A stretch of DNA of 64,000 bases from Candidatus Izemoplasmatales bacterium (GCA_050949045.1 JBMNEZ010000001.1:384001-448000), one strand, 5' to 3'; positions 35,652-62,039 are shown, counted from the stretch's first letter. Numbers and translations: made by a program. The notes: generated by a model from the sequence alone, not told the origin.

Positions 35652-38600
35652 GTGGACAAGATCAAAAAGCTAGTTTGGTTGTTCATCTTCATCGGTTTTG
35701 CCTTCACCTTCATCCTTGGATGCAAGGATGTTTCAACGACGATCGTTGAGACGACTTCGACGACAACTTTGGGCGTAATCAGCACCACCACCTCAAGCGG
35801 AAAGACTTCGACTGCGACGACCACCGCTCCGATAACGACCTCATCCACCATCTCCACGGACTTGACGACGGTAATAACGACCGCTCCACCTACTGTGACC
35901 ACGACGGTTCCATCTACTTTGAGCACGGCCGTCACCACCACTGTGGCATTTCCTGAGCCGACGATGGATTTTTCGGGTGAAACCGGCTGTCACACCATCG
36001 GTCTTTCGAACGATTTGGTTCTTTCGCTTGACCTTGGCGGGGCGGATATCACCGAACTTAAGTTGGGGACTACGGTCCTAGCCGCCAAAGATTACCGTTT
36101 GAGCGACGATGAATTGACGATCTTTAAGGAGTTCATCGATCGTTTTCAGCCAAGCGCAAGTTCCTTGCTTAAACTGACGACTGGTGGCGGAACCGCCACT
36201 CTCGACCTTGTCATCAACGATATCCCGGATATCAAGAACAAATCCGACTTCATCAAGTTTCCCGGAGAAGCGATCGTCAATGAGGATTTCAGAGGCCTCG
36301 TCATCGATGAAGTCGGGGCTTTGACCTATGAGTTTTCGATCGCTTCCGATGATCATCTGTTGGTCGATCACGGCAACGGCACCTTTGACTTCACCCCAGG
36401 CTTTGTCTTTGTGGGCGATCTTGCGATCACTTTCAAGGTGACCGACGAATATGGGGCAGGAGTCCAAAGAGACATCAACTTGAATTACAAAGAGGTCGAT
36501 CCTTATATCTTTGACGCCGGAGGCGAGAAGACATTTGAAAAGATGACCGCCGCCGCCGATCTTGTGATGATGGTCAATACCTATGGAAGCGAACCCGACA
36601 CTCTTTATTATGAGATGACGGATGTCTTGTTGTCAAAGGCTTCGATCGGCAGCGACAACTACCTTTTCAAAACCGATGACAATCCCAAGCTTTTCTCCCT
36701 CAAATATGAATATTTAATGGCTCTTCCTGTCGGAATTCACACTTTCACATTGACGACCGAGGCCGGACAGGCCGAGTTTATTGTCAATATTACGGATTCG
36801 AGGCCGGTAGAGGCGACTCCGAATGAGGCGGAATACACCCTCGGTGTTTCCTCGCAAAACCTCGATTTTGCTTTGGTTATTTATAACAATCAGATCACGG
36901 GAACCAGCTTTGAGCTCGATGGAACGACGCTTCTTTGCGACGAGTATACTTACAGCGATCAACTGCTCAGTTTACAGGTTGGTTTCCTGGAGACCTTGAC
37001 TCCCGGAAACCACCGCTTGAGCTGTAACGGCACGCAAATTGCATTGATTACTATTTTGACACCGCAAACGCCAAAATTGGGCGAAATCGATGAACCGGTC
37101 ATCTTTGAAAAAACAAACCCAAATGATTTGGTGATTCCGATCGAGCTCCATGGCTTTGCAAGTGTTACCGATATCTTTGATTCCCAGGTTAAACTTGAAA
37201 CCTCTGCTTACAGTCTCACCGAAACAACTCTCACCATCAAGAAAGCTTATCTTTCCGAACTGGCCTACGGGAACCATGAGTTCTTTATTGTGAACTCTCA
37301 AGGCTCGGCATCGTTCTTTGTGGCGATCACCGACAAACCAAAGCCGTCTTCAACCGATCAGAATGTGACCAAGTTCACCTACGAGACGATATCGAGCGAA
37401 GCGTTGAGGGTCTTGCAACCCGGCGGCTATGAAATCGAGCGCTTTGAACTGCTTTCGGTCGGCTTCTACAACTATGTTGAAACCGCGAGCGGAACCGCTC
37501 TAGAAGCCGATCTTGATGAATCGCTGCTTGAGGCGACCGGCGGCTTTGGCTCGCTTACCATCAGCGAGACCGCCAAAGCCTTCGCCTTTATCAGAAACTC
37601 CGGCTGGTACGGCGTGGTCGTCTTCACCTATGTCGCCCTTGATGAACTCGGTCTCTCAAGCGCTCCGATCACGATGGAAGTCGTCTATAAGCCTATGCCC
37701 CCGGCGATCGCCGACAGTACTTCCAAGCACTATGTGAAAGGCGATTTGACCGATGTTGTCTACACCGTCACCAACATGTCCGGCAATTCTTACTTCCCGA
37801 TCGAGAAGATCTTCTATGGAGAAACCGAACTGGTGCTTGATAGCGATTATACGGTCGGGCCGCAGGAAGGAAGCAACCTCTTCTTCACGATTAAAGCCAC
37901 ATACTTAGAAACTTTATCGCTCGGAACGAAAGCTTTCCTGCTTCGAACCGGAGGCGGACAGGCCGAGTTCTCGCTTGAAATCAATAGCGCTTTGAATATC
38001 AGCGATCCCGACGGCGAGTTCGACAAAAACATTCCCGAAACCATTGTGTTTGCGGTTTCGGGTCAGCCGAACGTCATCCAGACATTGAAAAAAGCTGGGA
38101 CCGTCCTTCCTTCCGATCATTACACTTTCACGGATGGATCCCTCTCGATCAAGTCTACCTATCTGAACAATCTTCCTTATGGAGAACACCACTTCACGAT
38201 CAATAACGGGTATGGAGAAAGCGAACTAAAGATTACGGTGATGGACTCTAGAACGCCCGTCTTGGTGTCAGAGACGATAACCTACTATGAGGGCAGTCTG
38301 GAAAATGTCAGCGTCGCCGTCAATCTTTACGACAAGTCGGTTACGGGGTTGTTGCTGGGAGAAACTGAAGTAAGCAGCAGCAATTACTCGGTTTTTGAAA
38401 ACACCGTTACGCTCACAGGTCCGTATCTTGAAAGCGTCGGCGTTGGCCGGGAAGAACTCGCCTTCACGATCGTCTGCTCGGAAGGAAGCATTTCTTTCAC
38501 GGTTTTGATCGAGATTCCGGTCGCTGGTCCAACTATCACGCAGATATCCCCGGATTTCAAAATCGACACCATCGAAGATGTGACCTACAGCATCAATTTG

Positions 38601-41117: not shown

Positions 41118-41157
41118 ATCAGTTCATGAACAAATAATTGTCAAGGAGGAAAACCCG

Positions 41158-43665
41158 ATGAAAACAAGAATACTCGGATTATTGATGGTTAGCTTAACCC
41201 TCGTTTTCCTTTTTGCTTGTAAAGAAACTTCGATCACCACGGCCTTGACCGATTCAACTACAACTGCGATCACAACCAAGACCAGTGTTCCCACAACCGC
41301 GACTGAGGCGACGACCACGACAACTGCCAACGATGATTTTCTGATCGCCAATCCCGGCTTTGAAAGCGGCGATCTTAGCGGTTGGACGGTGCTTTCAGGC
41401 GAAGCTTTCGCTTCGGAATATGTCACAAATGCTTCTCGCATTGGCTCCGCACCGTACAACAAAGCCGGCAACTATCTCTATGGCGCCGCTCCGGAAGCGT
41501 TGATTGGAAAGATGCGCTCTGAGAGTTTCCGAGTTTCGGGCAGCGGCTATGTGTCCTTCCTACTAGGTGGCGGCTATCTATCTGCTTTATGCTATGTCTC
41601 TGTTGTCGAGGAATCAACGCATCTGGAACTCTTCCGGATCGGCAATGAGGCTTTAGAGATTGTCGAACACTTCGGTCAGATGACGAGGCACTATGCCGAC
41701 TTATCGCCCCATCTTGGAAAAGAGGTTTACTTCCTTGTGGTCGATGATCAGACGGCCAACGGCGGCTATCTGGTTGTCGATGATTTCATATCCTATTACG
41801 CCAGCACGCCCAATACTGATCAGGGAATCCTCGCAACGGACATCAAACCGAGTTTTCCGGATCTGACAACGATCCCGAACAGTCTCGATAACGGCGATTT
41901 CGCAACAAGAACGCTTGAAGGCTGGACAATCAGCGGCGAAAAGGGCGTCTTTCGCGACTCGCATATCAACGAGAGTGGAAGGCTCTCGAACCGTCCCGAT
42001 GAGACCAAGATCGGCGTCCTCCGCTCCCCGGCCTTCAAAGTCAGTGGGAAAAACATCATCTCCTTTCGGCTCGGAGCGACCAAACACGCTGATCTAACTT
42101 ATCTGTCGATCAAAGAAGTGGGCACGAACATCGAAGTCTACCGGACTTACAGCGATCGCTGGATCGACGCTCATGAGGAGGCAACCCATCTTTATTACAT
42201 CGATCTTGGAAAGCACAGCGGACAGGCTTTGTATTTGGAGTTTGTCGACAACTCCCGGGGTGATTGGGGACTCCTCACGATCGAGGATATCATCACCTAT
42301 TACGACAGCGATCCCGTCGTCACCGACGAGATCGGCTGGAATCTGCTTAATGAAATCGATCATAGACGTGATTATGATAATATGCGCGACTATATCGATC
42401 CGCTAATTGCCTCAATCTCCGATGAGGCTGAACGGATTACCTTCCAAAAAACCTTCTATTCAACCGTCGATGGCATCAAAAACAACAAAGGCGACTGGCC
42501 CGGCGTGCTCCACTACAAGGACAACGGAATGACTTTTGTCTATACGGGGGACATCCACGCGATGTGGCTAAGGGATTCGAGCGCTCAGGTCCTGCCTTAC
42601 CTCCAGTTCATGGAAATGGATCAGGATGTGAAACATATGGTCAGAGGCTTGCTTTTGCAGCAGTTCGAGCAGATCCGCCGCGATCCCTATGCCAATGCCT
42701 TCAACCCCGACGGGAGCGTCTTTGAAAAGAAATTTGAGATCGATTCGCTTTGTTATCCCTTGTGGCTCGCTGATAAGTATTACTCGCTTACAGCTGACGA
42801 TACGATCTTCGACTACTTCTTTGAGCTGACCGTCCGGAAGGTGATTGAGACCCTGAGAAACGAGCAGAACCATTCCGATCATAATTACCGGATCGAGAAC
42901 GAATACGACCGTTCGGTCGGCTCAAATGACTTCAATCCGGAAAGCAAGTTGATTTGGAGCGGCTATCGTCCAAGCGACGATGTCTGTCACTACAAGTACT
43001 TCATCTCCGGCAATATGTTCGCTGTCGCCACTCTGGAAAAAATGGCTATCCTATTTGAAAATCTCGGTCTTGACGATGAACTTCGCCTGGAGATGGAAGA
43101 CCTGGCGGAGGAAGTAAGAACCGCGATTGAAACCTACGGCGTCTATGATCACCCCGTCTATGGCAAGATCTATGTTTTCGAGACGACCGGCCTGACAAGC
43201 GATTCGGGTTCGGCAGCCGAAAAAATCTTGGCCGATGCGGCCAATATCCCGAGTTTGTTGGCGGCTCCGTGGCTTGGTTATCTCGAGGTCGACGATCAGG
43301 TCTACCAGAATACCAGGGCCTTCATCCTGAGCGATGATAATCCGTATTACCATGAAGGGACCTATGCGAGCGGCATTGGCGATCCCCACGACAGCATCTA
43401 TCATGAAAACCCCGCCCTTCCCGTCGTTTGGCACATGGCGCTCGCCATGCAAGGTCTCACGGCCACTGACCCCGATGAGATCGATTTGATGCTTGCCTAC
43501 ATGAAAAATACGACTGCGGGCACTTATGTAATGCACGAGGCCTTCAATGCCAACAACCCCTCCCAGTACACCCGTGATTTTTTTACCTGGCCCTGCGCCC
43601 TTTATGCCGAACTTTATCTCAGAAACAAACTCAACATCAACCTTGATCAAGGAGTGACGCCATGA
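41158..43665 (+). CDS. Lipoprotein: tandem NxGFE.G module fused to a GH125 exo-alpha-mannosidase domain
   Basis: Lipobox LFAC; TGDIHAMWLRDSSAQ, EKKFEIDSLCY, GYRPSDD, ANIPSLL, MHEAF, TRDFFTW. ATG 41158 follows AAGGAGG. Confidence 0.85.
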   Translation: MKTRILGLLMVSLTLVFLFACKETSITTALTDSTTTAITTKTSVPTTATEATTTTTANDDFLIANPGFESGDLSGWTVLSGEAFASEYVTNASRIGSAPYNKAGNYLYGAAPEALIGKMRSESFRVSGSGYVSFLLGGGYLSALCYVSVVEESTHLELFRIGNEALEIVEHFGQMTRHYADLSPHLGKEVYFLVVDDQTANGGYLVVDDFISYYASTPNTDQGILATDIKPSFPDLTTIPNSLDNGDFATRTLEGWTISGEKGVFRDSHINESGRLSNRPDETKIGVLRSPAFKVSGKNIISFRLGATKHADLTYLSIKEVGTNIEVYRTYSDRWIDAHEEATHLYYIDLGKHSGQALYLEFVDNSRGDWGLLTIEDIITYYDSDPVVTDEIGWNLLNEIDHRRDYDNMRDYIDPLIASISDEAERITFQKTFYSTVDGIKNNKGDWPGVLHYKDNGMTFVYTGDIHAMWLRDSSAQVLPYLQFMEMDQDVKHMVRGLLLQQFEQIRRDPYANAFNPDGSVFEKKFEIDSLCYPLWLADKYYSLTADDTIFDYFFELTVRKVIETLRNEQNHSDHNYRIENEYDRSVGSNDFNPESKLIWSGYRPSDDVCHYKYFISGNMFAVATLEKMAILFENLGLDDELRLEMEDLAEEVRTAIETYGVYDHPVYGKIYVFETTGLTSDSGSAAEKILADAANIPSLLAAPWLGYLEVDDQVYQNTRAFILSDDNPYYHEGTYASGIGDPHDSIYHENPALPVVWHMALAMQGLTATDPDEIDLMLAYMKNTTAGTYVMHEAFNANNPSQYTRDFFTWPCALYAELYLRNKLNINLDQGVTP

Positions 43666-46163
43666 AAAAGCTGATTCTTTTGATTCTGACCATTATTCTC
43701 ACTTTTGCGCTCCTGCCCTTTTATTCAAGTGTGAGAGCGGAAGCGCCCCTCAGGGAGTATGGAGCCGATCTCGCCTTTAAAAGGCGCGTCGTCTCGAGTC
43801 CGAATACCGATCAAAACCTCAACATCAATGCCGTTGACAACGATCCTTCAAGCCGCTATGCGGCCGTGAAGGATGATTCTGCCTTTTTCTATGTCGATCT
43901 CGGATCAGTGGAGAAGATTGGCAAGGTCGTAATCGCTTTCGAAGCGGCCTATGCCAAAAAGTATCTGCTTCAACTGTCAAACGATGCCTTGACGTGGACG
44001 ACGGTGGCGACGGTGACCAATACCAAGGCGACGGTGAATGAAATCATCTTCCCCGAGTACCTTGAAGCCAAGTTTGTCCGTTTTCAGGGCGTTGAAAGGG
44101 GCATGGTTGATTATGGCTATTCATTCTGGAGTTTCGAGGTCTATGGACCCAAAAACCTGGCAGTGGGGGCCAATGTCGTCTTTGTTTCCTCAAATGAAAA
44201 CGAAGTCGAACTGAACAAAAGCTGTCTGACCGACGGCCTTGCCCACACGAGGTGGGCATCCGGCGTCGCTGATGGCCAGCATGTGATCATCGACCTTCTT
44301 GAAGCCAAGACTTTCGATCTCATCAAGATCCGCTGGGAAGTCTCCTTTGCAAGACGGTTTGCCATTTATGGCTACGAGGGAACACCTGATGGCGCTTATC
44401 CCGAAAGAGACGATGCTTCCTGGTTTGAAATCGAGAGATCGGATGTCGGTCTTGGCGAAGTCGATACTTTCAAACTTGATGGTGATCAGACCACAAGATT
44501 CATCAAACTCGAACTGATCCAAAGGGAAACGAACGAAGTGACGAAGAAGACCGGACGTTTTCCCTGGGAATCGACCTTCTCGATTTATGAATTCGAAATC
44601 TATGACTGGGATGCCATCCACGCAGCTCCTCTGGGCAGCGTCATGGAATTTTCCAAAGCCGCTCCCGCCTGGACGGCGATGGCCAACATAACCTTGAATG
44701 AAAGCGGGTTATTGCTGGCGCCGATCGGTTATCCCATTGAAGCCGATGGCAAGGTGACCGACCTTGCGAGCATCGCCAGTGGCGACATTCCCGGTTTTGA
44801 ATCTTATGCTGTTTATAATCCCGCCGTCATTTATGATGATGAAAGGGAAATGTTTCATATGATCTACCGAGCGGAACTCCCCGATAACTTCCATCACTAT
44901 TTCGGGGAGAAATATCCGCTTGGCCATATGTCCAGCCTGGCTTATGCTTTTTCCTTCGACGGCATCAACTGGGAAAGAGGAGCCGAAAATCCGATCGCCT
45001 GGGCGACATCCGCCGATGAAAAAGGCGGCGGCCTTGAGGATCCCAGGATGTTCAAAATCGAAAATGACCCTAATCGGGGGGGACTGACAACCTACTACAT
45101 CACCTACACGATGTATGACAACAACATGACTCGTGAGGGCATCATCTACACCCATGATTTTGTGACTTTCACCAAGGTCGGCAGACTCGCTCCCGATTAT
45201 CCAAACAACAACAAATCAGGAACCTACGTGACAGACCCCGAAGGGAATGCCGTGCTGATCAATGACCCAAGGCCGGGCAAGACCGGCAAGGTCTACATGA
45301 TCTACATGAAAGACGGAGGTTACACGAGAATCGGCTTCACGACCGATGTCATCAGGATCGAAGCCGAAGACATCATCGATATCGACACTTCAGGGTTTGG
45401 TTCAAACCATATCGAAGCCCTGACCAAGGGCAATGAGTCGTGCATGGCCTTGACCAATATCTATGGAGAAGAAGATCAAGATATTTATCTGATGTATGGC
45501 GGCGGCGTCCTGAGCGATCCGGAAATCAAGAACCAACAACCAAACGCCAGCGGCTGGTTTTATGCCTTGGGCGTTCTCAAAACGACCAAAGCGAATCCGT
45601 TTGAACTCACCCATTTCGATTATGATCTTAATGAACCCTCGATGTATCCCACCGATACGAACAAAATCGATTACGGCCTCTTCGACAAGTGCATGTTCGC
45701 CGATTCGCTGATCCGCCATGACAATCAATGGTATCTCTACTACGGAGCTGGCGACATGTATGTGGGAGCCGCCCTTGCAAGAGCGGATTTCACCGCCCCC
45801 AGCGCCACCTATGAACTCGAAGGCACCACTTTGATCGCAAGCACCACCGCTCTAAACAAGAAATACAAAGACGAGATGACGCCGCTGCTTGTCGAATTCG
45901 CGGTTGACGTCTACAACCTTGACGGCACCTTGCTCGACACGGTTGTGAAGAGTTATGAGATCGAGCACTTCACCATCTCGCCAATTGGCATTTACGAACA
46001 AGGCACCGAAATCACGGTAGCGGTCGATTTAACAAAGATCAGCGCGCTGGAAACGGATTACTATGTCATCGGTTACATCCGCGATCAACTTACAAAAGAA
46101 CGGCTGAACAATCCTTCAAGTTATCTGCACGTCACACCGATCATCATTTATCCTGAAGGTTAG
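43662..46163 (+). CDS. Secreted protein: two F5/8-type C (discoidin/CBM32-like) domains plus a GH130-like beta-propeller
   Basis: Signal peptide; VDLGS..FEAAYAKKY..YSFWSFEVYG twice; YNPAV, IYRA, LEDPRM, YLYYGAGD. Confidence 0.75.
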   Translation: MKKLILLILTIILTFALLPFYSSVRAEAPLREYGADLAFKRRVVSSPNTDQNLNINAVDNDPSSRYAAVKDDSAFFYVDLGSVEKIGKVVIAFEAAYAKKYLLQLSNDALTWTTVATVTNTKATVNEIIFPEYLEAKFVRFQGVERGMVDYGYSFWSFEVYGPKNLAVGANVVFVSSNENEVELNKSCLTDGLAHTRWASGVADGQHVIIDLLEAKTFDLIKIRWEVSFARRFAIYGYEGTPDGAYPERDDASWFEIERSDVGLGEVDTFKLDGDQTTRFIKLELIQRETNEVTKKTGRFPWESTFSIYEFEIYDWDAIHAAPLGSVMEFSKAAPAWTAMANITLNESGLLLAPIGYPIEADGKVTDLASIASGDIPGFESYAVYNPAVIYDDEREMFHMIYRAELPDNFHHYFGEKYPLGHMSSLAYAFSFDGINWERGAENPIAWATSADEKGGGLEDPRMFKIENDPNRGGLTTYYITYTMYDNNMTREGIIYTHDFVTFTKVGRLAPDYPNNNKSGTYVTDPEGNAVLINDPRPGKTGKVYMIYMKDGGYTRIGFTTDVIRIEAEDIIDIDTSGFGSNHIEALTKGNESCMALTNIYGEEDQDIYLMYGGGVLSDPEIKNQQPNASGWFYALGVLKTTKANPFELTHFDYDLNEPSMYPTDTNKIDYGLFDKCMFADSLIRHDNQWYLYYGAGDMYVGAALARADFTAPSATYELEGTTLIASTTALNKKYKDEMTPLLVEFAVDVYNLDGTLLDTVVKSYEIEHFTISPIGIYEQGTEITVAVDLTKISALETDYYVIGYIRDQLTKERLNNPSSYLHVTPIIIYPEG

Positions 46164-46171
46164 GAGGAATC

Positions 46172-48292
46172 ATGATGAAAAAATACTATCTGCTCTTCCT
46201 CCTTATTCTCTTGACTGCTCTTGGCGGCTGTCAAGAGGAAACGACTCTGCCCACAACCCTGCCGGTCACAACTGCCTCAACCACCACTCTGTTGGCGCTT
46301 GAGGCGCCCGGCAATCTTGTTTTGGCCGACAGGACTCTGAGCTGGGGCGAGGTGCCGGGGGCGAATGAGTACATCGTCAGGATCGACGGCAGGGAAACAA
46401 ACGTTTCGACAAACTCCTACCTTATCCCGGAATCCGTTTACGGCAAACTCTCGATCAGTGTCAAGGCCAAAGCCGGGACAGTGGAATCACCGTTTTCAAA
46501 TCCGATACTGAGAACGATCTACTATGTGTTGTCACAGCCGGAAAATATAGCCCAGAACGGCACCTTGATCACCTGGGATGAAGTTCTATGTGCGAGCGGC
46601 TATGTCATCAAGGTGAACGGTGTCGAGATCGTCCTTGAAGACAATGAATACAATATCGATATCGCCACCTCTAAAACGATCAATGTGAGAGCGATCTGTC
46701 CCTCTGATTCCTATATCATCAATAGCGATTTCACTGTTGATTTTGTGACCAAGACCAGACTGCAAACGCCCTCGGGCATCCGCTATGAAGAAGGCAGGCT
46801 GGTTTGGGATGCGGTCGCAAACGCTGATGGTTACCGGCTGACGATCGGGGCTTCCAGTTACCAGGTCGCGATCAATGTTTTTACCGATGTTTCGGCTTAT
46901 CGCGGAGAAGAAACAGTCACTGTGACAGCCAAGAACACTCTGGGGCTGTATCTTGATTCGATTGCGGCTTCAGCGATCATCGATTTTCCGATCCAGAGAC
47001 TTCCAAAAGTGACCGGCATAGAAGTCTCTGGAAACAATTTGAGGTTTGAGGGAAGCGCCGGCGCCACCGTTTATGATATCTACTATGGCGGGAACTACTT
47101 TGCGACGATCACGGAAACAACCTACCTCATACCCCCCTCGATCATGGCTGATCCAGACAGCTATCTCCAAGTCGTTGCCAAAGCCGATGGCTTCCATGAT
47201 TCGCCTCTGAGCGAGAAGGTCTTCGTCAACTATGAACTGATCTCGACCGAAGCGGAACTGATCGCCATGACCGCCGGCGGGCACTATGTTCTCGCAAACG
47301 ATATCGCGCTTACTGCGCCCTGGATTCCGCTTGATTTCTCAGGAAGCTTAAACGGCAACGATTTCGAGATTTCAAACATCGTTATCAGCGACGCATACCA
47401 GAACACCGGTTTGTTCGGCGTCTTGAATGAAGCGACGATCACCAATCTCAACCTGAACGGCGACATCAATTTCATCAGCGGTTTGTTTGCGGTCAATGTC
47501 GGTTCTCTCGCAGGAACGATCACAAGTTCAGAGATCGCCAATGTCAGCGCCAGATTCACGATCAACGCAGCTTCCCATAACGGAGTGGGAACAGTTGGCG
47601 GCCTGGTCGGCCTGCTTGAAAACACCAATCTCTATCGAAGCCATTTTGCGGGCGAAATAACAACCGCCAATATGACCACCGGCGGCCTCATCGGCAAGGC
47701 CCAGAACCCACTCGCATCCTCATCAGTCCACCAGTCAAGCGTTACAGCCGCCATCTTTAGTTCGGGCGGCCTTGAGAGCCCGGCGGGCGGTTTCATCGGC
47801 GTCATGAACAACAATTATCTTTCAATCAGCGAAGCTATGGCGAGGGTTGAAGTGGTCGGCGCAAACACCGTCGGCGGTTTTGTCGGCCGACTGGACTTTG
47901 GACATATCAGCGACAGTTACGCTATCGGAACCGTGGAAGCGACAAACACCGAATTTGTGAGCCTCGGCGGCTTCATCGGCATGCTTGTGGGCTACAACGC
48001 GACCGTCGTCAATATCTTGTCGGCTGTCGATGTCGTTGATCCTTTGGGCAACATTGAAGTCTACGCGGGCGGCTTCACGGGACTTACACCCGGAGGCAGT
48101 TACGCTCTCATGTATGACAATTGTCACTACCAAAGCCTGGCAAATCCGATTGACCGGATCGGCAACGCCGAAACCGGCAGAGGCGATGGCATCGCCCTGC
48201 TTGTCGGCTTAGAAGACATTTCCGGCTTCAGCCCATCAATCTGGGATTTTGGGACATTCTTCAAGTTAGTATGGGAAAAAGAAGCAGACTAA
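46172..48292 (+). CDS. Lipoprotein with FN3-like repeats and a GLUG/ZmpB-like beta-helix region
   Basis: Lipobox LGGC; L.AP.NL..LSW.EV..A..Y repeats; YVLANDI, FSGSLNGN, repeated VGGLVG/VGGFVG. Confidence 0.7.
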   Translation: MMKKYYLLFLLILLTALGGCQEETTLPTTLPVTTASTTTLLALEAPGNLVLADRTLSWGEVPGANEYIVRIDGRETNVSTNSYLIPESVYGKLSISVKAKAGTVESPFSNPILRTIYYVLSQPENIAQNGTLITWDEVLCASGYVIKVNGVEIVLEDNEYNIDIATSKTINVRAICPSDSYIINSDFTVDFVTKTRLQTPSGIRYEEGRLVWDAVANADGYRLTIGASSYQVAINVFTDVSAYRGEETVTVTAKNTLGLYLDSIAASAIIDFPIQRLPKVTGIEVSGNNLRFEGSAGATVYDIYYGGNYFATITETTYLIPPSIMADPDSYLQVVAKADGFHDSPLSEKVFVNYELISTEAELIAMTAGGHYVLANDIALTAPWIPLDFSGSLNGNDFEISNIVISDAYQNTGLFGVLNEATITNLNLNGDINFISGLFAVNVGSLAGTITSSEIANVSARFTINAASHNGVGTVGGLVGLLENTNLYRSHFAGEITTANMTTGGLIGKAQNPLASSSVHQSSVTAAIFSSGGLESPAGGFIGVMNNNYLSISEAMARVEVVGANTVGGFVGRLDFGHISDSYAIGTVEATNTEFVSLGGFIGMLVGYNATVVNILSAVDVVDPLGNIEVYAGGFTGLTPGGSYALMYDNCHYQSLANPIDRIGNAETGRGDGIALLVGLEDISGFSPSIWDFGTFFKLVWEKEAD

Positions 48293-48335
48293 GAATTTTG
48301 GATAGATAAACATAGGATTGTAGGAGGTGGTGCCT

Positions 48336-48455
48336 TTGATTGAAAGAAACATCGAGGCGCGAACAACAATGAGAAACGCATCTAAGGGATTGCTTGTGCT
48401 CAAAAGCGAATTACCAGACAAACGAGAAGCAACTTATAAAGGAGAATGTGTATGA
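48336..48455 (+). CDS. Possible 39-aa upstream ORF coupled to precursor 1
   Basis: AGGAGGT at 48322-28, TTG at 48336; its TGA overlaps the precursor ATG (ATGA). No recognisable motif. Confidence 0.3.
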   Translation: MIERNIEARTTMRNASKGLLVLKSELPDKREATYKGECV

Positions 48456-48583
48456 AAGAAAAACAGACAAAAAAACAATATGAAAGGCCGATGCTTGAAG
48501 TGATCGAATTTGACCTCGAAGACAGCATCGCGACGAGCATGGATTTCGGCCCTTCGACGATTTGCGGTGAGCAGACATGGTAA
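48452..48583 (+). CDS. RiPP-like precursor peptide 1, 43 aa: MKEKQTKKQYERPMLEVIEFDLEDSIATSMDFGPSTICGEQTW
   Basis: Translated by hand. RBS AAGGAG; YxxPxL leader motif; near-identical paralog at 55101 with only synonymous differences over 21 codons. Confidence 0.9.
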   Translation: MKEKQTKKQYERPMLEVIEFDLEDSIATSMDFGPSTICGEQTW

Positions 48584-51057
48584 ACATCAAAAAGGCTTTG
48601 GCCTGTTTTCTCGTCGTGACGCTGTCACTCTTGACGGTGGCCTTTCTTGCGAAAGAAACGACCATCAAGGCAACAGGGGGACAACAAACAGCTGAAAGCG
48701 TGGAATTGACCCTCGTGAGCTACTTTGACCAGGAAAACACGATCACATCCGTGTTTGAGATTCCCGAGGAGGGAACGCGGTGGTTTGATGAGTCGACAGA
48801 CAAGCTCCATGTCTATACTTCTGGAGCCTGGGACGCGGGAACAGCTGTCCCCGTTGTCGCCCCTGAGATGCCATCAACCGGCGACATGTGGTTTGACGAG
48901 GCAAAGAACACGCTCTACACTTACCTGGCTGAAGGTTGGGATGCCGGCGAGGTACTGCCGACCGCGGAACCCGATCTCAAGTATGGACAGAAACTGTCGT
49001 TAAACAGCAGTTTGGCATCAATGCCGGGATATTCATTTCTCTTTTGGGAAGTGAACGGATCGATTCGTCATGATTATGCTATCGATCACGTGTTCACTCT
49101 AACCAAAACAAATGTCATCAAGGCTGTTTTCAGCCCTTCTGACAGGCACGCGGTGGTTTTTGTGGATGCCAACAGTGAGATCCTTAAAGTCGAGTATGTC
49201 GCAGATAACGGAACTGCCACCCCGCCGGAGACCCTACCATCAAAACCGGGATATTCAACCAACGGGTGGGATGTCAGTTATGAAAATGTCACCGATGATG
49301 TCGTGACGGTGTTGCAGTATACTGCCACAGACACGACTGAGTATCTGGTTACGGTCGAAAACGGCACCGGCGATGGCAGTTATGCTTATAACACTGTTGC
49401 GACCGTTACTGCGGACGTCCCTTCACAAGGAAATTATTTTCATCATTGGTCGGTCGGCGACGAGATCGTCAGTTATCAATCGACTTACAAGTTTTCTGTC
49501 TATGGTGCGACAACGATAACCGCAGTTTATGAGGGTTCAGCGCCTTCCGACAATCCCTACGTGGTGCTCGGGGATGATCTGGCGATCAGATCCGGCTCAA
49601 AAACCTATGTCGGTCAGTTCTATGTTCCAACCGGCTACACATTGATCGAATACGGGATCTTGACATCGATCAGCGAAGCGGAAATCAATCTCGACACCAT
49701 TAGGACAACAAGGTATCCTGGCTATAAGTACAATGCGGCCACCAAAGAATTCGTGATGAGTTTTGAAGAAAACGAAATCACCGCCGCCAGGGCTTATTTG
49801 ATTTGTAGTGATTCGGAAGATGCTATCCACACTTATTACAGCGGCCATAGATACTCGTCTTCCATCTATCAAGTCAAGAATGGCGGATTTGAGTTTGAAG
49901 ACGGCGCCATAACCGGTAGTCTCGATGGCTGGTATGGATACAACATTTGGAAGAACGAAAAGGGAATGCAATCATTCCTTCGTTGGGACGATGGGAATGG
50001 AAAATTTGTCAATCTTGATGACCGCGTCGTGAACACAACGTATTTTGACAATCATCCTTATAACAGAGATGGCAGTTACAATCTCGGGATCACATGGCCG
50101 GGAGGCAGTTGGGATCAAACATCAGAAAGAATGGGACATCTCCGTTCATCTAATTTCACGCTTGGCGGAAGCGGATGGATCAGTTTCAAACTCGGGGGAG
50201 GCAAGTCTAGCTCTTTCGCTTTCGTATCCGTTAGAAGAGCTTCGGATAACTATGAGGTCGCCCGTTTTGGAAACAAGAACTACAACAATACTGCAATCGC
50301 GTCGGCACAATACGGTTCGGCCATAACCAATGCGGAAGCATTCTTATTCCAATACTACTATGACTTAAGCGAATATTTGGGCACAGAATTGTATTTCCTC
50401 ATCACAGAATCATCATCAAAAGAATGGTGTATTCTCTCAGCCGACTCATTCGTGACCTACTATCCAATAGCGCCCTCAACTGATTCGGATACCTTAGCCA
50501 CAAATATCCTGCCAACGATTTACAATGCCGGATCCTCAACGAACCAGTTGGCAAACAACCTTAATGGCAATGTTAATAATTGGGGGAACCCAAATAATGT
50601 GTTCCGTTGGGATGATGGGGCAGGAAGAACTAATGCTATTAGTGGAGATAACGATTTGGGAGTCGCCCGTTCATCAGCGTTTAATATCAATGGGCCCAAC
50701 ACCTATCTATGGTGGCAGTGGGAAGGCAATATCAGTCAAGACAAACAATTGTTCATATCCATCAAAGAGGTCGGGACAAACATTGAAGTTTTGCGATTGG
50801 TAAGAAGAGACAACTTGTCAGGAAAAACAGGTGGTGGATTTGACAATCACTGGTTTGATCTCAGCGGGCTTGATGCCGGCAAGGAGTACTATGTTGAACT
50901 ATGTGACAATTTGACCATTGGTTGGGGCTTGATCAGTATCAAAGATATTTATCTGGCACAGAATAATCAAAGCGACAAGGTTGGGTCGGCTCAACCAAAT
51001 GACGTGGCGGTTTCAATCTCAGGAATTGAAACCGAGTTTGCTTACGAGGAACCTTGA
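48577..51057 (+). CDS. Secreted protein, scaffold family member 1 (B-repeat-like N-terminal scaffold plus tandem NxGFE.G module)
   Basis: Signal peptide. N-terminal region is homologous to the 55242 and 57825 proteins; C-terminal region is homologous to the module in the 35652 protein. Confidence 0.85.
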   Translation: MVNIKKALACFLVVTLSLLTVAFLAKETTIKATGGQQTAESVELTLVSYFDQENTITSVFEIPEEGTRWFDESTDKLHVYTSGAWDAGTAVPVVAPEMPSTGDMWFDEAKNTLYTYLAEGWDAGEVLPTAEPDLKYGQKLSLNSSLASMPGYSFLFWEVNGSIRHDYAIDHVFTLTKTNVIKAVFSPSDRHAVVFVDANSEILKVEYVADNGTATPPETLPSKPGYSTNGWDVSYENVTDDVVTVLQYTATDTTEYLVTVENGTGDGSYAYNTVATVTADVPSQGNYFHHWSVGDEIVSYQSTYKFSVYGATTITAVYEGSAPSDNPYVVLGDDLAIRSGSKTYVGQFYVPTGYTLIEYGILTSISEAEINLDTIRTTRYPGYKYNAATKEFVMSFEENEITAARAYLICSDSEDAIHTYYSGHRYSSSIYQVKNGGFEFEDGAITGSLDGWYGYNIWKNEKGMQSFLRWDDGNGKFVNLDDRVVNTTYFDNHPYNRDGSYNLGITWPGGSWDQTSERMGHLRSSNFTLGGSGWISFKLGGGKSSSFAFVSVRRASDNYEVARFGNKNYNNTAIASAQYGSAITNAEAFLFQYYYDLSEYLGTELYFLITESSSKEWCILSADSFVTYYPIAPSTDSDTLATNILPTIYNAGSSTNQLANNLNGNVNNWGNPNNVFRWDDGAGRTNAISGDNDLGVARSSAFNINGPNTYLWWQWEGNISQDKQLFISIKEVGTNIEVLRLVRRDNLSGKTGGGFDNHWFDLSGLDAGKEYYVELCDNLTIGWGLISIKDIYLAQNNQSDKVGSAQPNDVAVSISGIETEFAYEEP
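48757..48972 (+). repeat. Two tandem 108-nt (36-aa) intragenic repeats, E.P..G..WFDE....L..Y....WDAG...P
   Basis: Units at 48757-48864 and 48865-48972; absent from the two paralogs. Confidence 0.8.
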
Positions 51058-51079
51058 TTTTTTTACTTGCCGTGATTCA

Positions 51080-51112
51080 AAACCCCCGATGACACGCCGT
51101 TGTCGGGGGTTT
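51080..51112 (+). terminator. Stem-loop, probable intrinsic terminator
   Basis: AAACCCCCGATGAC-acgcc-GTTGTCGGGGGTTT just after the stop at 51057; short U tract. Confidence 0.65.
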
Positions 51113-51179: not shown

Positions 51180-52187
51180 GTGATCTCATTGACTGACTAT
51201 CAAGGCTTAAAATCTAAAATCATCAGACTGGGAGCGCTTCAAAGAGTCCCGGTTCTTGGCGAGTTTGAACTGACCTCGAAATGTAATTTCGCCTGTCCCA
51301 TGTGTTATGTCAAAGACAATAAGCCAAAAAGCGAGCTGGCCAAGGAAGAGTGGATCTCGATCTTTGAAGAAGCGGTTGTCGAAGGATTGGTCTACGCCCT
51401 TTTGACCGGAGGGGAGCCCCTCACAAGGAGCGACTTTGTGGAACTGTATGAGTTCCTCTATGACTATGGAGTCAAGATAACGGTTTATACAAACGGCTAT
51501 CATTTAACCAAAGAACAGCTTGAGGCCTTCACGAACAGGCCCCCGGAGATGGTTGCCATCACTCTTTACGGCGCAAGTGACGATACCTATAACATCGTGA
51601 CGGGCATCAAGGATGGCTATACAAAAGTAACAGAAAACATCCTCAAACTGAAAAAAAGCAAGATCAACATCGCCTGCCGGGTAATTCCGATTCCCGAGGT
51701 CTACGCCGATCTTGATGATATCTTGAAGTTTATCAAAGAAAATAACATTCCCCTAGGGTATTTCCTCTATCTAGCTCCGTCGAAGAAAAAGGATTACCAC
51801 GGAAGATTATCTCCCGAGCAATTAGTTGATTTCGAGCAGCGGCTTCTTACTTTCAAAGGAAAGCAAAAACCCTCCAAGGATTTTGATACTTTATCGAGTT
51901 GCGCCGCTCTTAAGAGCGGCTATGCGGTGAACCACCGAGGATATATGCAACCATGTACTTTGATGGCTCATCCAAGAAAGAAACTGGAACGCGGGACATT
52001 TCTCACAACCTTTCGGGAACTAAGTGATAAATGGCAGAATCTTGAGAAGTCCCATGACTGTGAGTCCTGTGATTTAAGCTCATCATGCATTCCCTGCCCC
52101 GCCAGAAGATATTATGAAGGCGATCCTCACAAGTGTGCTCCCTACCTCCTTGAAATCGCCAAGGAAAGGAAAAAACGAAATGACTGA
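51180..52187 (+). CDS. Radical SAM/SPASM-domain peptide maturase
   Basis: ELTSKCNFACPMCY (CxxxCxxC), TGGEP, YTNG; C-terminal CAA..G.MQPC..CESCDLSSSCIPCPA..C. Confidence 0.9.
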   Translation: MISLTDYQGLKSKIIRLGALQRVPVLGEFELTSKCNFACPMCYVKDNKPKSELAKEEWISIFEEAVVEGLVYALLTGGEPLTRSDFVELYEFLYDYGVKITVYTNGYHLTKEQLEAFTNRPPEMVAITLYGASDDTYNIVTGIKDGYTKVTENILKLKKSKINIACRVIPIPEVYADLDDILKFIKENNIPLGYFLYLAPSKKKDYHGRLSPEQLVDFEQRLLTFKGKQKPSKDFDTLSSCAALKSGYAVNHRGYMQPCTLMAHPRKKLERGTFLTTFRELSDKWQNLEKSHDCESCDLSSSCIPCPARRYYEGDPHKCAPYLLEIAKERKKRND

Positions 52188-53031
52188 CACCTATAAGATC
52201 GGTAATGTTTGTCTTAGATTTAAGTATATCTACGACAAATATTTTGCATCGAGGATACGTTCATACAAAAGCGATGAATCACCTGAATATCAAATGCGGG
52301 TTGTTATTAAGAAAGATTTGATGTTTCCCGAAGGAAAACCGAAATATAGATTTCAAGACCGTCAGATTTATGAAGATGGACAAAAAGGAGTCATTGTCAA
52401 ACATGATGACAAAAACAATATTACCCACCTAATCACCTATTCGCTCGATTTCAAGGATATTCTAATCGAGCTGTCGGAGTCATTGGGATCAAGATTGGCC
52501 GAAGTGGAATACAAAATCAGCGGAATGATGTTTTTCGAGATTGCGATCAGGAATGGTTTGATCCCGATTCACGCCTCAGCTATCGGCTACCAAGACGAAG
52601 CTATCCTTTTCTGTGGTTCCTCCGGAACCGGCAAATCGACTCAGGCGGAGCTTTGGAAACAAAATCTTGACGAGGTGATCTTCATCAACGACGACAAGCC
52701 TTTGCTTTATGAGGCCGGCGACGGACTCTATGTCACTGGCTCGCCTTGGTCGGGAAAGACATCAAGGAATGAAAACGTCAAAATGAAGGTGAAAGCGATC
52801 GTCTTCATCAAGCAAGCCCCCCACAACAATCTCATTTCTCTCACTGTCTATGACAAGATAACCAACTTCTTAAGAAACATCTATCGACCGAGGGAAGAGG
52901 CCAAGATCGAGAATGTGCTGGAACTGATCGAAAAGATGATCTCTGATCTTCCGGTTTACAAATATTATTGCACAAAAGAGAATGATTCTTTCGAATACTT
53001 GTATCAGGCACTTTATAGAAGGGATTACTGA
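52180..53031 (+). CDS. HPr-kinase-related P-loop kinase
   Basis: IHASAI..AILFCGSSGTGKSTQA..W, INDDKP, GSPWSGK. ATG 52180 overlaps the end of the rSAM gene. Confidence 0.8.
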   Translation: MTDTYKIGNVCLRFKYIYDKYFASRIRSYKSDESPEYQMRVVIKKDLMFPEGKPKYRFQDRQIYEDGQKGVIVKHDDKNNITHLITYSLDFKDILIELSESLGSRLAEVEYKISGMMFFEIAIRNGLIPIHASAIGYQDEAILFCGSSGTGKSTQAELWKQNLDEVIFINDDKPLLYEAGDGLYVTGSPWSGKTSRNENVKMKVKAIVFIKQAPHNNLISLTVYDKITNFLRNIYRPREEAKIENVLELIEKMISDLPVYKYYCTKENDSFEYLYQALYRRDY

Positions 53032-53033
53032 AG

Positions 53034-53306
53034 ATGAAACTGAAAGCAAACTATGTTTTAAGAGAAGTCGCGGGCGAGAATATCGTCATCCCTGTCGACA
53101 GCGAGGCCATCAACTTCAACGGCATCATGACGCTCAATGAAACCGGTAAGTTTTTGTGGAACCAGTTGAAACAAGAGGTGTCGGTCGAAAGCTTGATTGC
53201 GTCCATCGTCGATAACTACGAAGTCGACAGAAACACCGCCGCCCAAGACGTGACGGCATTTATTGAAAAGCTTAGAAAACACAATGTTCTTGAAGATGGC
53301 AAGTAA
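53034..53306 (+). CDS. Stand-alone PqqD-family RiPP recognition element (RRE)
   Basis: 90 aa; LREVAGE..V, TLNETGKFLW..L, YEVD...A..DV..FIEKL....L. Confidence 0.9.
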   Translation: MKLKANYVLREVAGENIVIPVDSEAINFNGIMTLNETGKFLWNQLKQEVSVESLIASIVDNYEVDRNTAAQDVTAFIEKLRKHNVLEDGK

Positions 53307-53745
53307 GAAAGAGACAAAAAACGGCATCTTGCCGCTGATCGAGGAACAACTGCTTCTCGGCAAACAAGTGGCCTTTAAAGTCAAGGGAACAAGCATGTTC
53401 CCGTTTTTGCATTCGGGAAGAACCGAAGTCACGCTCCATAAGCCAACCGTCGAACCGAAAAAATACGACATCGTCCTTTTCAAAACAAAAGACCACTATG
53501 TTTTGCACCGGATCATCAAGCGTCGCCGCGATGTTTACATCGTCATGGGCGACGCTTTAAAGAAAAAAGATTATGTCAAGATCGACCAAATCATCGGTGT
53601 CGTCAAAGAGATCAAAGTCGATGGCAAACCGGTCGACATCCATGAGAAGAAATACAAGCGTAAAGTCAGATGCTGGGTCGCTTTCCGGGCCGCCAGGAGA
53701 TTCCTCCTCTACTACTTGAGGCGTTCACAGAAGGATATAAAATGA
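53296..53745 (+). CDS. S24/S26-family peptidase (Ser-His type, no N-terminal TM)
   Basis: VKGTSMFPFL, DIVLF, VLHRII, MGDA. ATG 53296 overlaps the end of the PqqD gene. Confidence 0.85.
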   Translation: MASKKETKNGILPLIEEQLLLGKQVAFKVKGTSMFPFLHSGRTEVTLHKPTVEPKKYDIVLFKTKDHYVLHRIIKRRRDVYIVMGDALKKKDYVKIDQIIGVVKEIKVDGKPVDIHEKKYKRKVRCWVAFRAARRFLLYYLRRSQKDIK

Positions 53746-55100: not shown

Positions 55101-55235
55101 ATGAAACAAGTCAATGACAAGAAATCGCAATATGTGAAGCCCGACATCGAAGTGATTGAATTCTCGCTTGAAGACAGCATCGCCACCAGCATGGATTTTG
55201 GCCCGTCGACAATCTGCGGCGAGCAAACGTTTTAG
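55101..55235 (+). CDS. RiPP-like precursor peptide 2, 44 aa: MKQVNDKKSQYVKPDIEVIEFSLEDSIATSMDFGPSTICGEQTF
   Basis: Translated by hand. GAAGGAG at 55081-87; YxxPxI motif; paralog of 48452. Its TAG overlaps the AGGAGGT RBS of the next gene. Confidence 0.9.
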   Translation: MKQVNDKKSQYVKPDIEVIEFSLEDSIATSMDFGPSTICGEQTF

Positions 55236-55241
55236 GAGGTA

Positions 55242-57683
55242 ATGATGATGAAAAAGGGATTTATTTTTTGCTTGTTGTCGCTTTTCCTGTTCGCTTTGCC
55301 GGTAAGGTATGTTAAAGCTGAATCAATGGCAAATGTCGATGTTCAAGTAAAAGCCTATTTTGATGAATATAACATTCTAACAACAAACGTAAATGACCAG
55401 CCATACGCCAGCAAAATATCTGCCTCTCTTCATATCCCTGAAGCCCCAGAAGGATATTCTTCATATCAGTTCTTCTGTTGGGTTGTCAATGGGGTTGTCA
55501 GGCAAGACCTTCCAGCTGATTATGAGTTTTTTGTTAGAAACACGACCGTTCTTACAGCCATCTACAGGCCGTCTGACAGACATGCGGTTCTTTTCATGGA
55601 CTCCAACGGAACTGCAATAAAAGTTGATTATGTCAGTAATGGTGAAGATGCAACACCGCCGGATGTATCAAGTTATTCCAAACCGGGGATGGTCGTCTCA
55701 TCAACCAGTCCTTGGGGCGAAGTAAGTCTAACCAACATCACAGAAAACAAAATCGCGTATCTCGAGTATGATTTTGATACTTCGGAAACCTTTAATGTCA
55801 CAGTTGTGAACGGTAGCGGCAGCAATGAAGCGGCGTCATACGGATCAGTATTGACTGCTGTCGCCAATGCTCCCGAAGGAGATTTGGAATTCTTTCATTG
55901 GACCGATGAAAACGGCAAAATTGTAAGTCATAAACCATCATACTCATTCACGGCCTACAAAGACACAACGATTACCGCGGTTTATGAAAACATGCCGTCG
56001 GTTGATATTCCGTATGTTGTGATAAGTGATCTGTTGTTGCTGAGAGATGGCAAAAGCACATTCATTGGTCAGTTCAACATTCCCGATGGATATACTATGG
56101 TTGAATATGGATTTCTTGCAGCTAATACTCAATTTGATTTTAAACTCGATACCGAAGGTGTCATTAAATACCAATCGGAAAAATCAAATGCGCAAACTAA
56201 CGAGTATATGATTAGTTTTCCATTTGTAAATGGGCAATCCGTCAAAGGTTACATTGTTGTTAAAAACGCCTTAACCGGTTTATTAGAATACCATTATAGC
56301 AGTACTGAGAAAATTTCTTTCTTGATGATCAGCGAATATGGAGAAGGTTCGAGCTACAACAAATGGATTGAAATTTATAATCCAACCGATGAAATCGTCG
56401 CGCTTTCTGATTATAGGGTTGAACTTTATGTCAATGGCGCTACCACAGCAAGTAATCCGCTATCATTTACTACTGAATCGATTTTTCCTGGAGATGTCTA
56501 TGTTATTGCTCACCCTGATTCAAACGCAGATATTCTAAGTCAATCGGATGTTACCAGCGAAGTAACTAATTTCAATGGAGACGATGCGGTTGCATTGCTG
56601 AAAAATTATGTTGTGATCGATGTCATTGGTGTTATTGGAACTGATCCAGGAACAAAATGGGATGTAGGAGAAGGATCCACTCTTGATCATACACTGGTAA
56701 GGAAACCAAGTACGGATTATTATCCGAATGGTGCTTGGAAACCTTCGGATTGGGATGTCTATGATTGTGATTACATAGGCAATCTTGGATATCACGAAGA
56801 TGTAGAACCCTTGTCAATTTCGATTATCGGTGCTACTGAAGTGATGAAAGATGCATCTCTACCACTAGCAGTAATGTATAACCCGATCAATTCGATAAGG
56901 GGAGTCGAATGGGAAAGCAGCAACACTTCGATTGCCACGGTTAATAGTAATGGACTTGTGACTGGGGTTGACGTGGGAGAGGTTACTATTACTGCCAGGT
57001 CCGCACTCAATGGAACTATTTTAGATACACATCCAGTTACGGTTACTTCACCTGTCTATTATTCTGTCAGTGCATCATCTTCTGACGAATTAAAAGGTTC
57101 AGTCAGCGCGAGCCCAACTTCGGTTTTATCTGGCGGCTCTTCGACAATCACAATTTCGCCAGCAACAGGATATCAAGCCTCAACAATCACAATTAATAGC
57201 GAAGAACCTATTGATATTACTGGACAGACATCATATTTGATTGAAAACATCTTTGAAAATAAGACGGTTGTAGTAAATTTTGTTGAAGGTATTACGGAAT
57301 TAGTGTTCTCAAAGACTCTTACTGGTACAACAGGTAATCCCCCTTCAGGGTGGACCTATAGTGGCTTAGGTAGTGCATATAAAGACGGCTCACTAAAAAT
57401 GGATACCACTGGCGACTATATTATTTCTGAATCGTTTGCTCTTCAAACATCGGCAATTTTGTATATTGAATTGAAAGGCAACGGTTTTTCTGGAGGTAGT
57501 ATTAGTTTCTACGATCAAGAAAATAACCTTCTCAAGACTTTTTCAACTGAAATCGAAAATTTGCAAAAAACACTATCATTTACCATTTCAGATACTTCGG
57601 TTACTTCTGTAAAATTTGTATATAATAAATCAAGCGGAAATGTTGGAATATACTCAGTTGAGTTAAAACACATAGTTGACTAA
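55242..57683 (+). CDS. Secreted protein, scaffold family member 2 (scaffold plus lamin-tail domain, Big_2, C-terminal beta domain)
   Basis: Signal peptide ending VKA; LMISEYGEGSSYNKWIEIYNP (lamin-tail domain); WESSNTSIATVNSNGLVTGV (Big_2). Start may be 55245 or 55248. Confidence 0.85.
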   Translation: MMMKKGFIFCLLSLFLFALPVRYVKAESMANVDVQVKAYFDEYNILTTNVNDQPYASKISASLHIPEAPEGYSSYQFFCWVVNGVVRQDLPADYEFFVRNTTVLTAIYRPSDRHAVLFMDSNGTAIKVDYVSNGEDATPPDVSSYSKPGMVVSSTSPWGEVSLTNITENKIAYLEYDFDTSETFNVTVVNGSGSNEAASYGSVLTAVANAPEGDLEFFHWTDENGKIVSHKPSYSFTAYKDTTITAVYENMPSVDIPYVVISDLLLLRDGKSTFIGQFNIPDGYTMVEYGFLAANTQFDFKLDTEGVIKYQSEKSNAQTNEYMISFPFVNGQSVKGYIVVKNALTGLLEYHYSSTEKISFLMISEYGEGSSYNKWIEIYNPTDEIVALSDYRVELYVNGATTASNPLSFTTESIFPGDVYVIAHPDSNADILSQSDVTSEVTNFNGDDAVALLKNYVVIDVIGVIGTDPGTKWDVGEGSTLDHTLVRKPSTDYYPNGAWKPSDWDVYDCDYIGNLGYHEDVEPLSISIIGATEVMKDASLPLAVMYNPINSIRGVEWESSNTSIATVNSNGLVTGVDVGEVTITARSALNGTILDTHPVTVTSPVYYSVSASSSDELKGSVSASPTSVLSGGSSTITISPATGYQASTITINSEEPIDITGQTSYLIENIFENKTVVVNFVEGITELVFSKTLTGTTGNPPSGWTYSGLGSAYKDGSLKMDTTGDYIISESFALQTSAILYIELKGNGFSGGSISFYDQENNLLKTFSTEIENLQKTLSFTISDTSVTSVKFVYNKSSGNVGIYSVELKHIVD

Positions 57684-57824: not shown

Positions 57825-62038
<4,214 letters not shown>

Positions 62039-62039
<1 letters not shown>

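Follow-up and report, generated by a model that had tools for sequence, protein, structure and literature searches.

The window, by which we mean the whole stretch of 64,000 nucleotides that was analysed, holds two short open reading frames (ORFs) of related sequence, each followed by the gene for a large secreted protein. Five genes of an enzyme block lie between the two short ORFs (radical SAM, HprK-like, PqqD, protease and PF14907 nucleotidyltransferase). The features of this region, in order, are:

48452..48583, + strand: precursor peptide 1, 43 aa, from ATG at 48452 to TAA at 48583
48577..51057, + strand: Big1, a Sec-secreted protein of 826 aa, N-terminal module with an insert, the rest without a Pfam family
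51083..51112, + strand: inverted repeat CCCCCGA...TCGGGGG followed by TTT, terminator-like, 3' of Big1, read from the sequence
51180..52187, + strand: radical SAM/SPASM enzyme, 335 aa, Radical_SAM E 9e-22
52114..53031, + strand: HprK-like/ScmC-like P-loop protein, likely true start ATG 52180
53034..53306, + strand: discrete PqqD-family RRE, 90 aa, PqqD E 1.2e-17, over cut-off
53263..53745, + strand: soluble signal-peptidase-I-like (S24/S26) protease, likely start ATG 53296, 149 aa
53670..54935, + strand: PF14907 (NTP_transf_5) nucleotidyltransferase, likely start ATG 53742
55101..55235, + strand: precursor peptide 2, 44 aa, paralogue of peptide 1
55242..57683, + strand: Big2, a Sec-secreted protein of 813 aa, N-terminal module, LTD and Big_2 domains
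57825..62039, + strand: secreted nuclease, 1404 aa, same N-terminal module, LTD, Big_3, metallo-beta-lactamase and Endonuclease I

Peptide 1 is preceded at a distance of 7 nt by AAGGAG (48439-48444), and its stop codon overlaps the ATG of Big1 (ATGGTAA). Peptide 2, which we located by a six-frame motif search, ends 6 nt before the start of Big2. The layout of peptide 1 comprises a Lys-rich N-terminus, a leader (Y10-x-x-P13...EVIEF...LEDSIATS29) and a core (MDFGPSTIC38GEQTW). Profile searches with the two peptides against Pfam, NCBIfam and PDB gave no match, and the host's own genome (1,356,138 bp in one contig, 98.3% complete) holds these two copies only.

A preliminary description of this DNA had proposed that both peptides are translated and that their C-terminal sequence is functionally constrained. 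Codon-by-codon comparison bears out the details on which that proposal was built. The 21 residues L22-T42 (LEDSIATSMDFGPSTICGEQT) are the same in both peptides, and the corresponding codons differ at exactly 10 positions (codons 22, 27, 28, 32, 34, 36, 37, 39, 41 and 42), all third positions and all synonymous; EVIEF carries two further synonymous changes (I18 and F20). The N-termini diverge with Y-x-x-P kept, in that Y10 and P13 are common to both copies, as are K7 and Q9, which the preliminary description lacked, and both peptides end in an aromatic residue (W/F). By the Nei-Gojobori method, codons 22-42 show 10 synonymous differences over 13.3 synonymous sites (pS 0.75, saturated) and 0 differences over 49.7 non-synonymous sites (pN 0). 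When 10 substitutions were placed randomly in 63 nt as a control, an all-synonymous outcome arose in 0 of 300,000 trials. Ungapped identity between the copies is 70% in the coding part, 28% in the 100-nt upstream flank and 32% in the 100-nt downstream flank.

Support for translation and for constraint at the protein level extends well beyond these two copies. We aligned 40 distinct homologous DNAs from all related loci, ungapped and starting at the Tyr. The sense frame is open in 40/40, and each of the remaining five frames is interrupted by stops in 12 to 38 of the 40. Nucleotide diversity at codon positions 1, 2 and 3 is 0.31, 0.23 and 0.64, and the dN/dS comparison across homologues that had been suggested as a check gives a sense-frame pN/pS of 0.33 with pS saturated. 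Moreover, no frame-disrupting change occurs among 65 distinct genomic homologues. The two ORFs are genuine genes under purifying selection, and ORFs shorter than 60 aa thus hide genuine genes in genomes like these. The further claim that the C-terminal sequence is constrained stands for the close lineage, where it concerns 14 C-terminal residues, but not for the family as a whole, in which the leader up to S29 is most constrained.

This conservation could in principle belong to an RNA element or to an ORF on the opposite strand instead of to a peptide. When only the two window copies are compared, the wobble-sharing antisense frame is almost equally conserved (one E/D change), so data from the wider family were needed; in addition, all three antisense frames are open in copy 1, and the RNA fold of that copy has a z-score of -1.97. 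In the family, however, stops interrupt the three antisense frames in 12, 26 and 34 of 40 homologues and the sense frame in 0/40, which excludes even the wobble-sharing frame (12/40), and diversity is highest at sense third positions. Copy 2 folds into a structure unlike that of copy 1 at a z-score of +0.95, and the peptide genes have no Rfam match at E<=1; together, these fold scores and the Rfam result indicate no shared RNA structure. The reading as an RNA element or antisense ORF is therefore already contradicted by the family data, and we accord it practically no probability.

Peptide 1 is covered at >=99% identity by RNA-library contigs from three runs of three studies (biogas/bioreactor metatranscriptomes), where a contig marks presence in the library, is no proof of transcription and leaves RNA start, end and strand unreadable. 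One contig of 2857 nt (run X3; 48231-51086) spans peptide 1 and the entire Big1 and ends at 51086, at the terminator-like hairpin, a repeat that our terminator scan had missed because its loop is 13 nt. In the same contig, the A7 run at 48469-48475 is one A longer, a change that would shift the frame of peptide 1 and that the two other contigs over this run lack; an error in assembly, strain variation or slippage could explain it. The A7 run lies in the Lys-rich N-terminus of the peptide, and a contig of another run has C>G at 48476 (Q9E). Among the contig pieces listed, none covers peptide 2 and little of the enzyme block is covered, a pattern that is uninformative on expression.

To place the peptides in a wider family, we searched both related genomes and metagenomic proteins. 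The peptide was found in 25 of 61 related genomes at E<=10, 22 of these at E<1e-3, and two copies ~6.6 kb apart are frequent. A profile search of 1.84 billion cluster representatives returned 252 at E<=0.001, all of 29-81 aa, which are mostly left unnamed by gene callers; for 8 close database homologues, the sole name given by the source was "hypothetical protein". YxxP is present in 147 of the 149 representatives examined, with a Ser 19 residues after the Tyr in 140/147 and an Ile at +16 in 145/147, giving a family leader of YExPxIEVIEFxLEDSIAxS. Conservation stops at S29, and the residue that follows is mostly Gly. The variant was found in 34 of the 218 genera sampled in the host's class. 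Within the genus, comparing the last residue (W/F/Y) by eye with the type of downstream protein revealed no pattern. One sub-family (P0075, P0086 and P0127 among the representatives) reads ...IEFETEDVITTSG... with short acidic Gly-rich cores, and its FET triplet recalls the published logo of linear polyphosphorylated peptides (LPP), but in another register.

The YxxP leader and the adjoining block of enzymes centered on a PqqD-type RRE support the label of precursor peptide used in the preliminary description. The radical SAM enzyme has C35-x3-C39-x2-C42 together with C241, C259, C294, C297, C303, C306 and C319, all conserved in 21-22 of 22 sequences. It matches SPASM maturase models, all below their cut-offs, and the nearest solved sequence is SkfB (E 5.4e-16), a thioether-forming enzyme. 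Matches of the HprK-like protein were likewise sub-cut-off (ScmC, 1.4e-7 and 31 bits vs. a cut-off of 125; HprK_rel_B, 0.0027 and 16.9 bits vs. a cut-off of 200), with a further weak match to PEPCK_ATP at 18.9 bits. Its Walker A motif S-x-x-G-K-S-T is well kept, with S170, G173, K174 and T176 in 34/34 sequences and S175 in 32/34. The RRE is the only PqqD match in the genome. In NCBIfam, it comes closest to the lasso PqqD chaperone of Bacillota (43.5 bits vs. a cut-off of 80), and in PDB to the lasso-type PbaB1 (9x90_B, E 1.3e-6); TbiB1 was also matched, and LppB (9x8z) was not among the PDB matches at E<=0.01. For the protease, sub-cut-off matches were to Peptidase_S24 (1.5e-4) and, best in NCBIfam, to sigpep_I_arch, the archaeal-type signal peptidase I (2.4e-7), and its G-x-S33-M-x-P, H71-R and G85-D86 are invariant (19/19). 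The nucleotidyltransferase matches NTP_transf_5 at E 3.7e-42 (145 bits, cut-off 31.2) and has G-D-I-D in 35/35 sequences. These conserved motifs fit what would be expected of active enzymes.

Related loci retain the order radical SAM, HprK-like, PqqD, protease, NTP-transferase, peptide, and in them the block either immediately precedes a peptide gene or is flanked by one on each side. The HprK-like gene accompanies a strong peptide match (E<1e-3) in 20 of 22 genomes, the exceptions being G008 (81% complete) and G015, and the radical SAM enzyme is found in 20 of the 61 related genomes. At some loci (L050, L051, L112, L116 and L117), an enzyme block is lacking within 9-10 kb of the peptide gene. 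Two related loci depart from the usual arrangement. In G015, positions 6906-9693 of contig C28 (L064) hold the radical SAM, protease and NTP-transferase genes with no HprK-like or PqqD match, and the peptide gene lies on another contig ahead of a gene for a 792-aa secreted protein. In L060 (G026:C35, 4879-12419), there are two tandem enzyme blocks, the first with a 627-aa ORF that matches both radical SAM and HprK-like proteins and looks like a fusion. A CxxxCxxC ORF after the L109 peptide was considered as a maturase and rejected, as it is the housekeeping enzyme RlmN.

We next consider the single Cys of the core, which occupies core position 9 in 42 of 43 cases. Among 65 distinct peptide genes, 41 have an HprK-like gene within 9 kb; of these, all 26 with a core Cys have a radical SAM gene and none of the 15 without it do (26/26 vs. 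0/15), counts that are inflated by kinship, as the radical SAM trait changes ~3 times on the HprK-like tree and the 1-2 independent contrasts put significance out of reach of any test. Together with the likeness to SkfB, this co-variation points to a Cys-dependent cross-link. The Cys-less relatives outside the order have the full LPP set and an adjacent ABC exporter in 5 of 5 cases checked. In four Cys-less loci outside the order (L098, L101, L102 and L103), the HprK-like ORF is 362-371 aa long and a separate PqqD ORF was not matched, and the RRE may be fused to the HprK-like ORF. A divergent MsbA-like exporter stands beside the HprK-like ORF in all three of these loci that were checked (L098, L101 and L102).

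The closest parallel to the block is the LPP pathway, described only in 2026 and, according to the available text, with its end product and role still open. As given there, the clusters (lppA-K-B-S-D-N) come from Paenibacillus alginolyticus and other Bacillota and encode a SipW-like peptidase (LppS), an RRE (LppB), an HprK-like kinase (LppK), an NTP-transferase (LppN) and an MsbA-like exporter (Popov et al., Nat Commun 2026, PMC13381572). The precursors are 35-200 aa long with the leader YxxPxVLxHQxIxFET|xxS, both polyphosphorylation of S3 and the need of the RRE for leader cleavage were shown, and the clusters were found in capsule loci (PMC13381572).

Measured against this available text, the window shares with LPP a discrete PqqD-type RRE, an HprK-like P-loop protein, a PF14907 NTP-transferase and a soluble, archaeal-type, signal-peptidase-I-like leader peptidase with a Ser/His/Asp set. 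The signal-peptidase-like gene adjoins the PqqD gene, just as the LPP peptidase stands beside a discrete RRE, and both systems lack a cyclase. The precursors are short in each, with YxxP in the N-terminal leader, variable C-termini and a conserved Ser that marks the end of the conserved stretch, and each system is encoded close to loci for extracellular structures. The five Cys-less relatives of the window system also share the adjacent ABC exporter of LPP.

By contrast, several features of the window are unlike the LPP clusters as described in that text. The first gene of the block encodes a radical SAM/SPASM enzyme, a single Cys is fixed in the core, and every precursor gene is coupled to one for a large secreted protein. 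The 64-kb window contains no exporter: neither ABC_membrane nor ABC_tran was matched by any of its ORFs, and the genome's six ABC_membrane matches all fall outside it. The leaders also differ (YExPxIEVIEFxLEDSIAxS vs. YxxPxVLxHQxIxFETxxS), with 19 residues from Tyr to Ser in the window family vs. 18 in LPP and no FET triplet in the window leader. Because the window RRE matches PbaB1 and not LppB at E<=0.01, descent from the LPP clade is not established. The host group (Izemoplasmatales and related small-genome lineages) goes unmentioned in the available text and supplements of Popov et al., the text has no mention of radical SAM, Tenericutes, Mollicutes or Izemoplasma, and "Radical_SAM" appears once in the supplements available, as a column of a domain matrix (PMC13381572). 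Our literature searches returned no paper combining PqqD, nucleotidyltransferase, HPr kinase and radical SAM, and none combining HprK, radical SAM and RiPP; among the matches listed, a search on SynChlorMet/ScmC/PF14907 gave unrelated papers only, and Popov et al. was the only relevant paper on LPP.

We therefore consider it probable that peptides 1 and 2 are paralogous RiPP precursors and that their pathway joins the LPP enzyme set to a SPASM radical SAM enzyme. What would be new is this extension, by which the window variant would add radical SAM chemistry to an LPP-like pathway, with the chemistry itself predicted by analogy. In the proposed sequence of steps, the leader (YExPxIEVIEF) would dock on the genome's single PqqD-type RRE, as the motif and solved homologous complexes suggest. 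The target of the radical SAM/SPASM enzyme would be the single Cys, at core position 9, and the most likely result a thioether cross-link, a step suggested by the co-variation and by SkfB as the nearest solved enzyme. The HprK-like P-loop protein may then phosphorylate S29, the near-universal Ser at the border of leader and core, by analogy with LppK acting on S3. Decoration of this phosphate could fall to the PF14907 enzyme by analogy with PsmN, which according to the available text is required for the hexose on the phospho-Ser of pseudomycoidin (PMC6993621). Finally, the soluble signal-peptidase-I-like protease would remove the leader near SIAxS, at LED|S or AxS|G.

The Ser and the cut are closely connected in this scheme. 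S29 is the sole near-universal hydroxyl residue in the family, and some relatives (e.g., the L086 peptide) have no Ser, Thr or Tyr beyond it. If the kinase resembles LppK and if the phosphate is kept on the product, S29 would be the acceptor and cleavage would have to fall upstream of it. Three cleavage registers can be drawn, namely LED|S from the analogy with FET| of LppA, S|I from a rule placing Tyr at minus 16, and AxS|G from the classical -3/-1 rule, by which the cut falls after A-x-S29. The S|I register is weakened because S25 is a Ser in only 85 of 147 relatives. A three-chain model of protease, RRE and peptide lends weak support, with a score of 0.56 vs. 0.35 for the best control, agreement between runs in >=75% of contacts and a partner pLDDT of >=52. 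The mark for such scores was reached by 116/157 solved complexes and 2/215 mismatches, but at scores <=0.60 by only 18/157 solved complexes and by both of the passing mismatches. Since like complexes have been solved (9x8z and 9x90), the pass may reflect likeness only.

The radical SAM step also invites comparison with sactipeptides (SkfA/SkfB) and ranthipeptides, which have in common with the window a SPASM/twitch-type radical SAM enzyme, RRE-guided leader recognition and a core Cys. However, the window differs from them in that the RRE is a separate protein, there is a single Cys, and a kinase-like enzyme, a nucleotidyltransferase and a signal-peptidase-like protease are added. A thioether in the window product would be predicted from the co-occurrence of the Cys and the enzyme.

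The peptide genes are linked both to the block and to secreted proteins, by synteny and by phyletic pattern. Among the 57 peptide genes with >=300 nt of downstream sequence, 55 have a long ORF <=60 nt downstream, and 53 of these 55 ORFs are homologous to the N-terminus of Big1, Big2 or the nuclease. Examination of 21 cases placed the ORF start at -10 to +11 nt relative to the peptide stop, with a Sec-type signal peptide at the front of each protein. The common N-terminal module is ~330 aa long and all-beta (Big1 vs. Big2, 37% identity over 314 aa). Its model (pLDDT 84.3, pTM 0.77) gave only generic tandem Ig-like adhesin or stalk matches in Foldseek at TM 0.10-0.20, with no clue to peptide binding. 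Cargo beyond the module varies and may be LTD, Big_2, LRR, or metallo-beta-lactamase with Endonuclease I. Peptide and module occur together in the same 23 of 61 relatives. Across ~400 genomes of the class, both occur in 35, the peptide alone in 19 (in 13 as a weak match, E>1e-5) and the module alone in 9, where at least 4 of the matches cover a single repeat. The nuclease at 57825..62039 has no peptide gene in front. Orphan units of peptide and big ORF exist with no block nearby, so the unit that travels together is the peptide with its secreted protein, and the enzymes would act in trans.

These observations link the role of the product to the secreted proteins encoded just downstream. It is possible, though on present odds unlikely, that the matured peptide is a dedicated partner of Sec-secreted exoenzymes that carry the ~330-aa N-terminal stalk module, among them nuclease-type proteins of DNA-foraging wall-less bacteria. 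Such a partner could be, for example, a phospho- or glyco-decorated tether or adaptor that holds or activates the exoenzymes at the cell surface. If this is true, LPP-type peptides would serve machinery at the surface or outside the cell as accessory factors and would not be antibiotics. The repeated tight coupling to secreted nuclease-type genes offers a concrete, testable lead on what the peptide is for.

Two other accounts of the peptides compete with a radical SAM-extended LPP-like pathway. The same coupling could mean that the peptide stays unmodified and acts mainly as a small partner of the secreted protein encoded downstream, whether as an upstream ORF that ensures translational coupling, as an aid to secretion or folding, or as an inhibitor, and that the block serves another substrate. 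The near-invariable downstream ORF, the start-stop distances, the shared presence of peptide and module and the orphan units would all be expected on that account. However, YxxP is a known RRE-docking motif and the genome's only PqqD sits between both peptide genes, the HprK-like gene accompanies nearly all strong peptide matches, and the core Cys accompanies the radical SAM gene. Moreover, no other candidate substrate was seen in the block, and orphan copies are found in genomes that have a block elsewhere (G021, G036 and G414). Taken together, we judge this account improbable.

Lasso-peptide precursors are the other candidate. Phosphorylated or glycosylated lasso peptides (paeninodin and pseudomycoidin), as far as the available text describes them, share with the window a YxxP/WxxP leader, a discrete RRE, and an HprK-type kinase and a PsmN-type NTP-transferase for Ser tailoring (PMC6993621). 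The window leader is of the lasso-compatible YxxPx[ILV] type, the best RRE matches in both NCBIfam and PDB are lasso proteins, and clusters of the paeninodin type contain, in the same available description, a kinase with a PF14907 enzyme. By contrast, the window has no macrolactam synthetase and no B2 protease. No Asn-synthase-type cyclase (PF00733) scored over cut-off anywhere in the 98.3% complete, one-contig genome, the B2-type protease family was not found among the window ORFs, and the signal-peptidase-like protease takes the place that a B2 protease would have. A lasso product is thus highly improbable, and the LPP-like pathway with a SPASM radical SAM enzyme remains the reading that we prefer.

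Positions 1-23833 of the window form a capsule/EPS-type polysaccharide biosynthesis locus in a wall-less lineage, with MurJ- and Polysacc_synt-type flippases, several Wzy_C proteins, glycosyltransferases, a pyruvyl transferase, a sugar transferase and a UDP-glucose dehydrogenase. A run of very large secreted enzymes occupies 35652-48292 and 57825-62701. It includes a 1821-aa protein of CBM_X2 and purple-acid-phosphatase type, GH125, a protein with F5/8-C and GH130-like parts, a Glug-motif protein, the 1404-aa LTD, MBL and Endonuclease I nuclease, and a CBM_X2 protein. This run fits a lifestyle of foraging on extracellular polymers and DNA.
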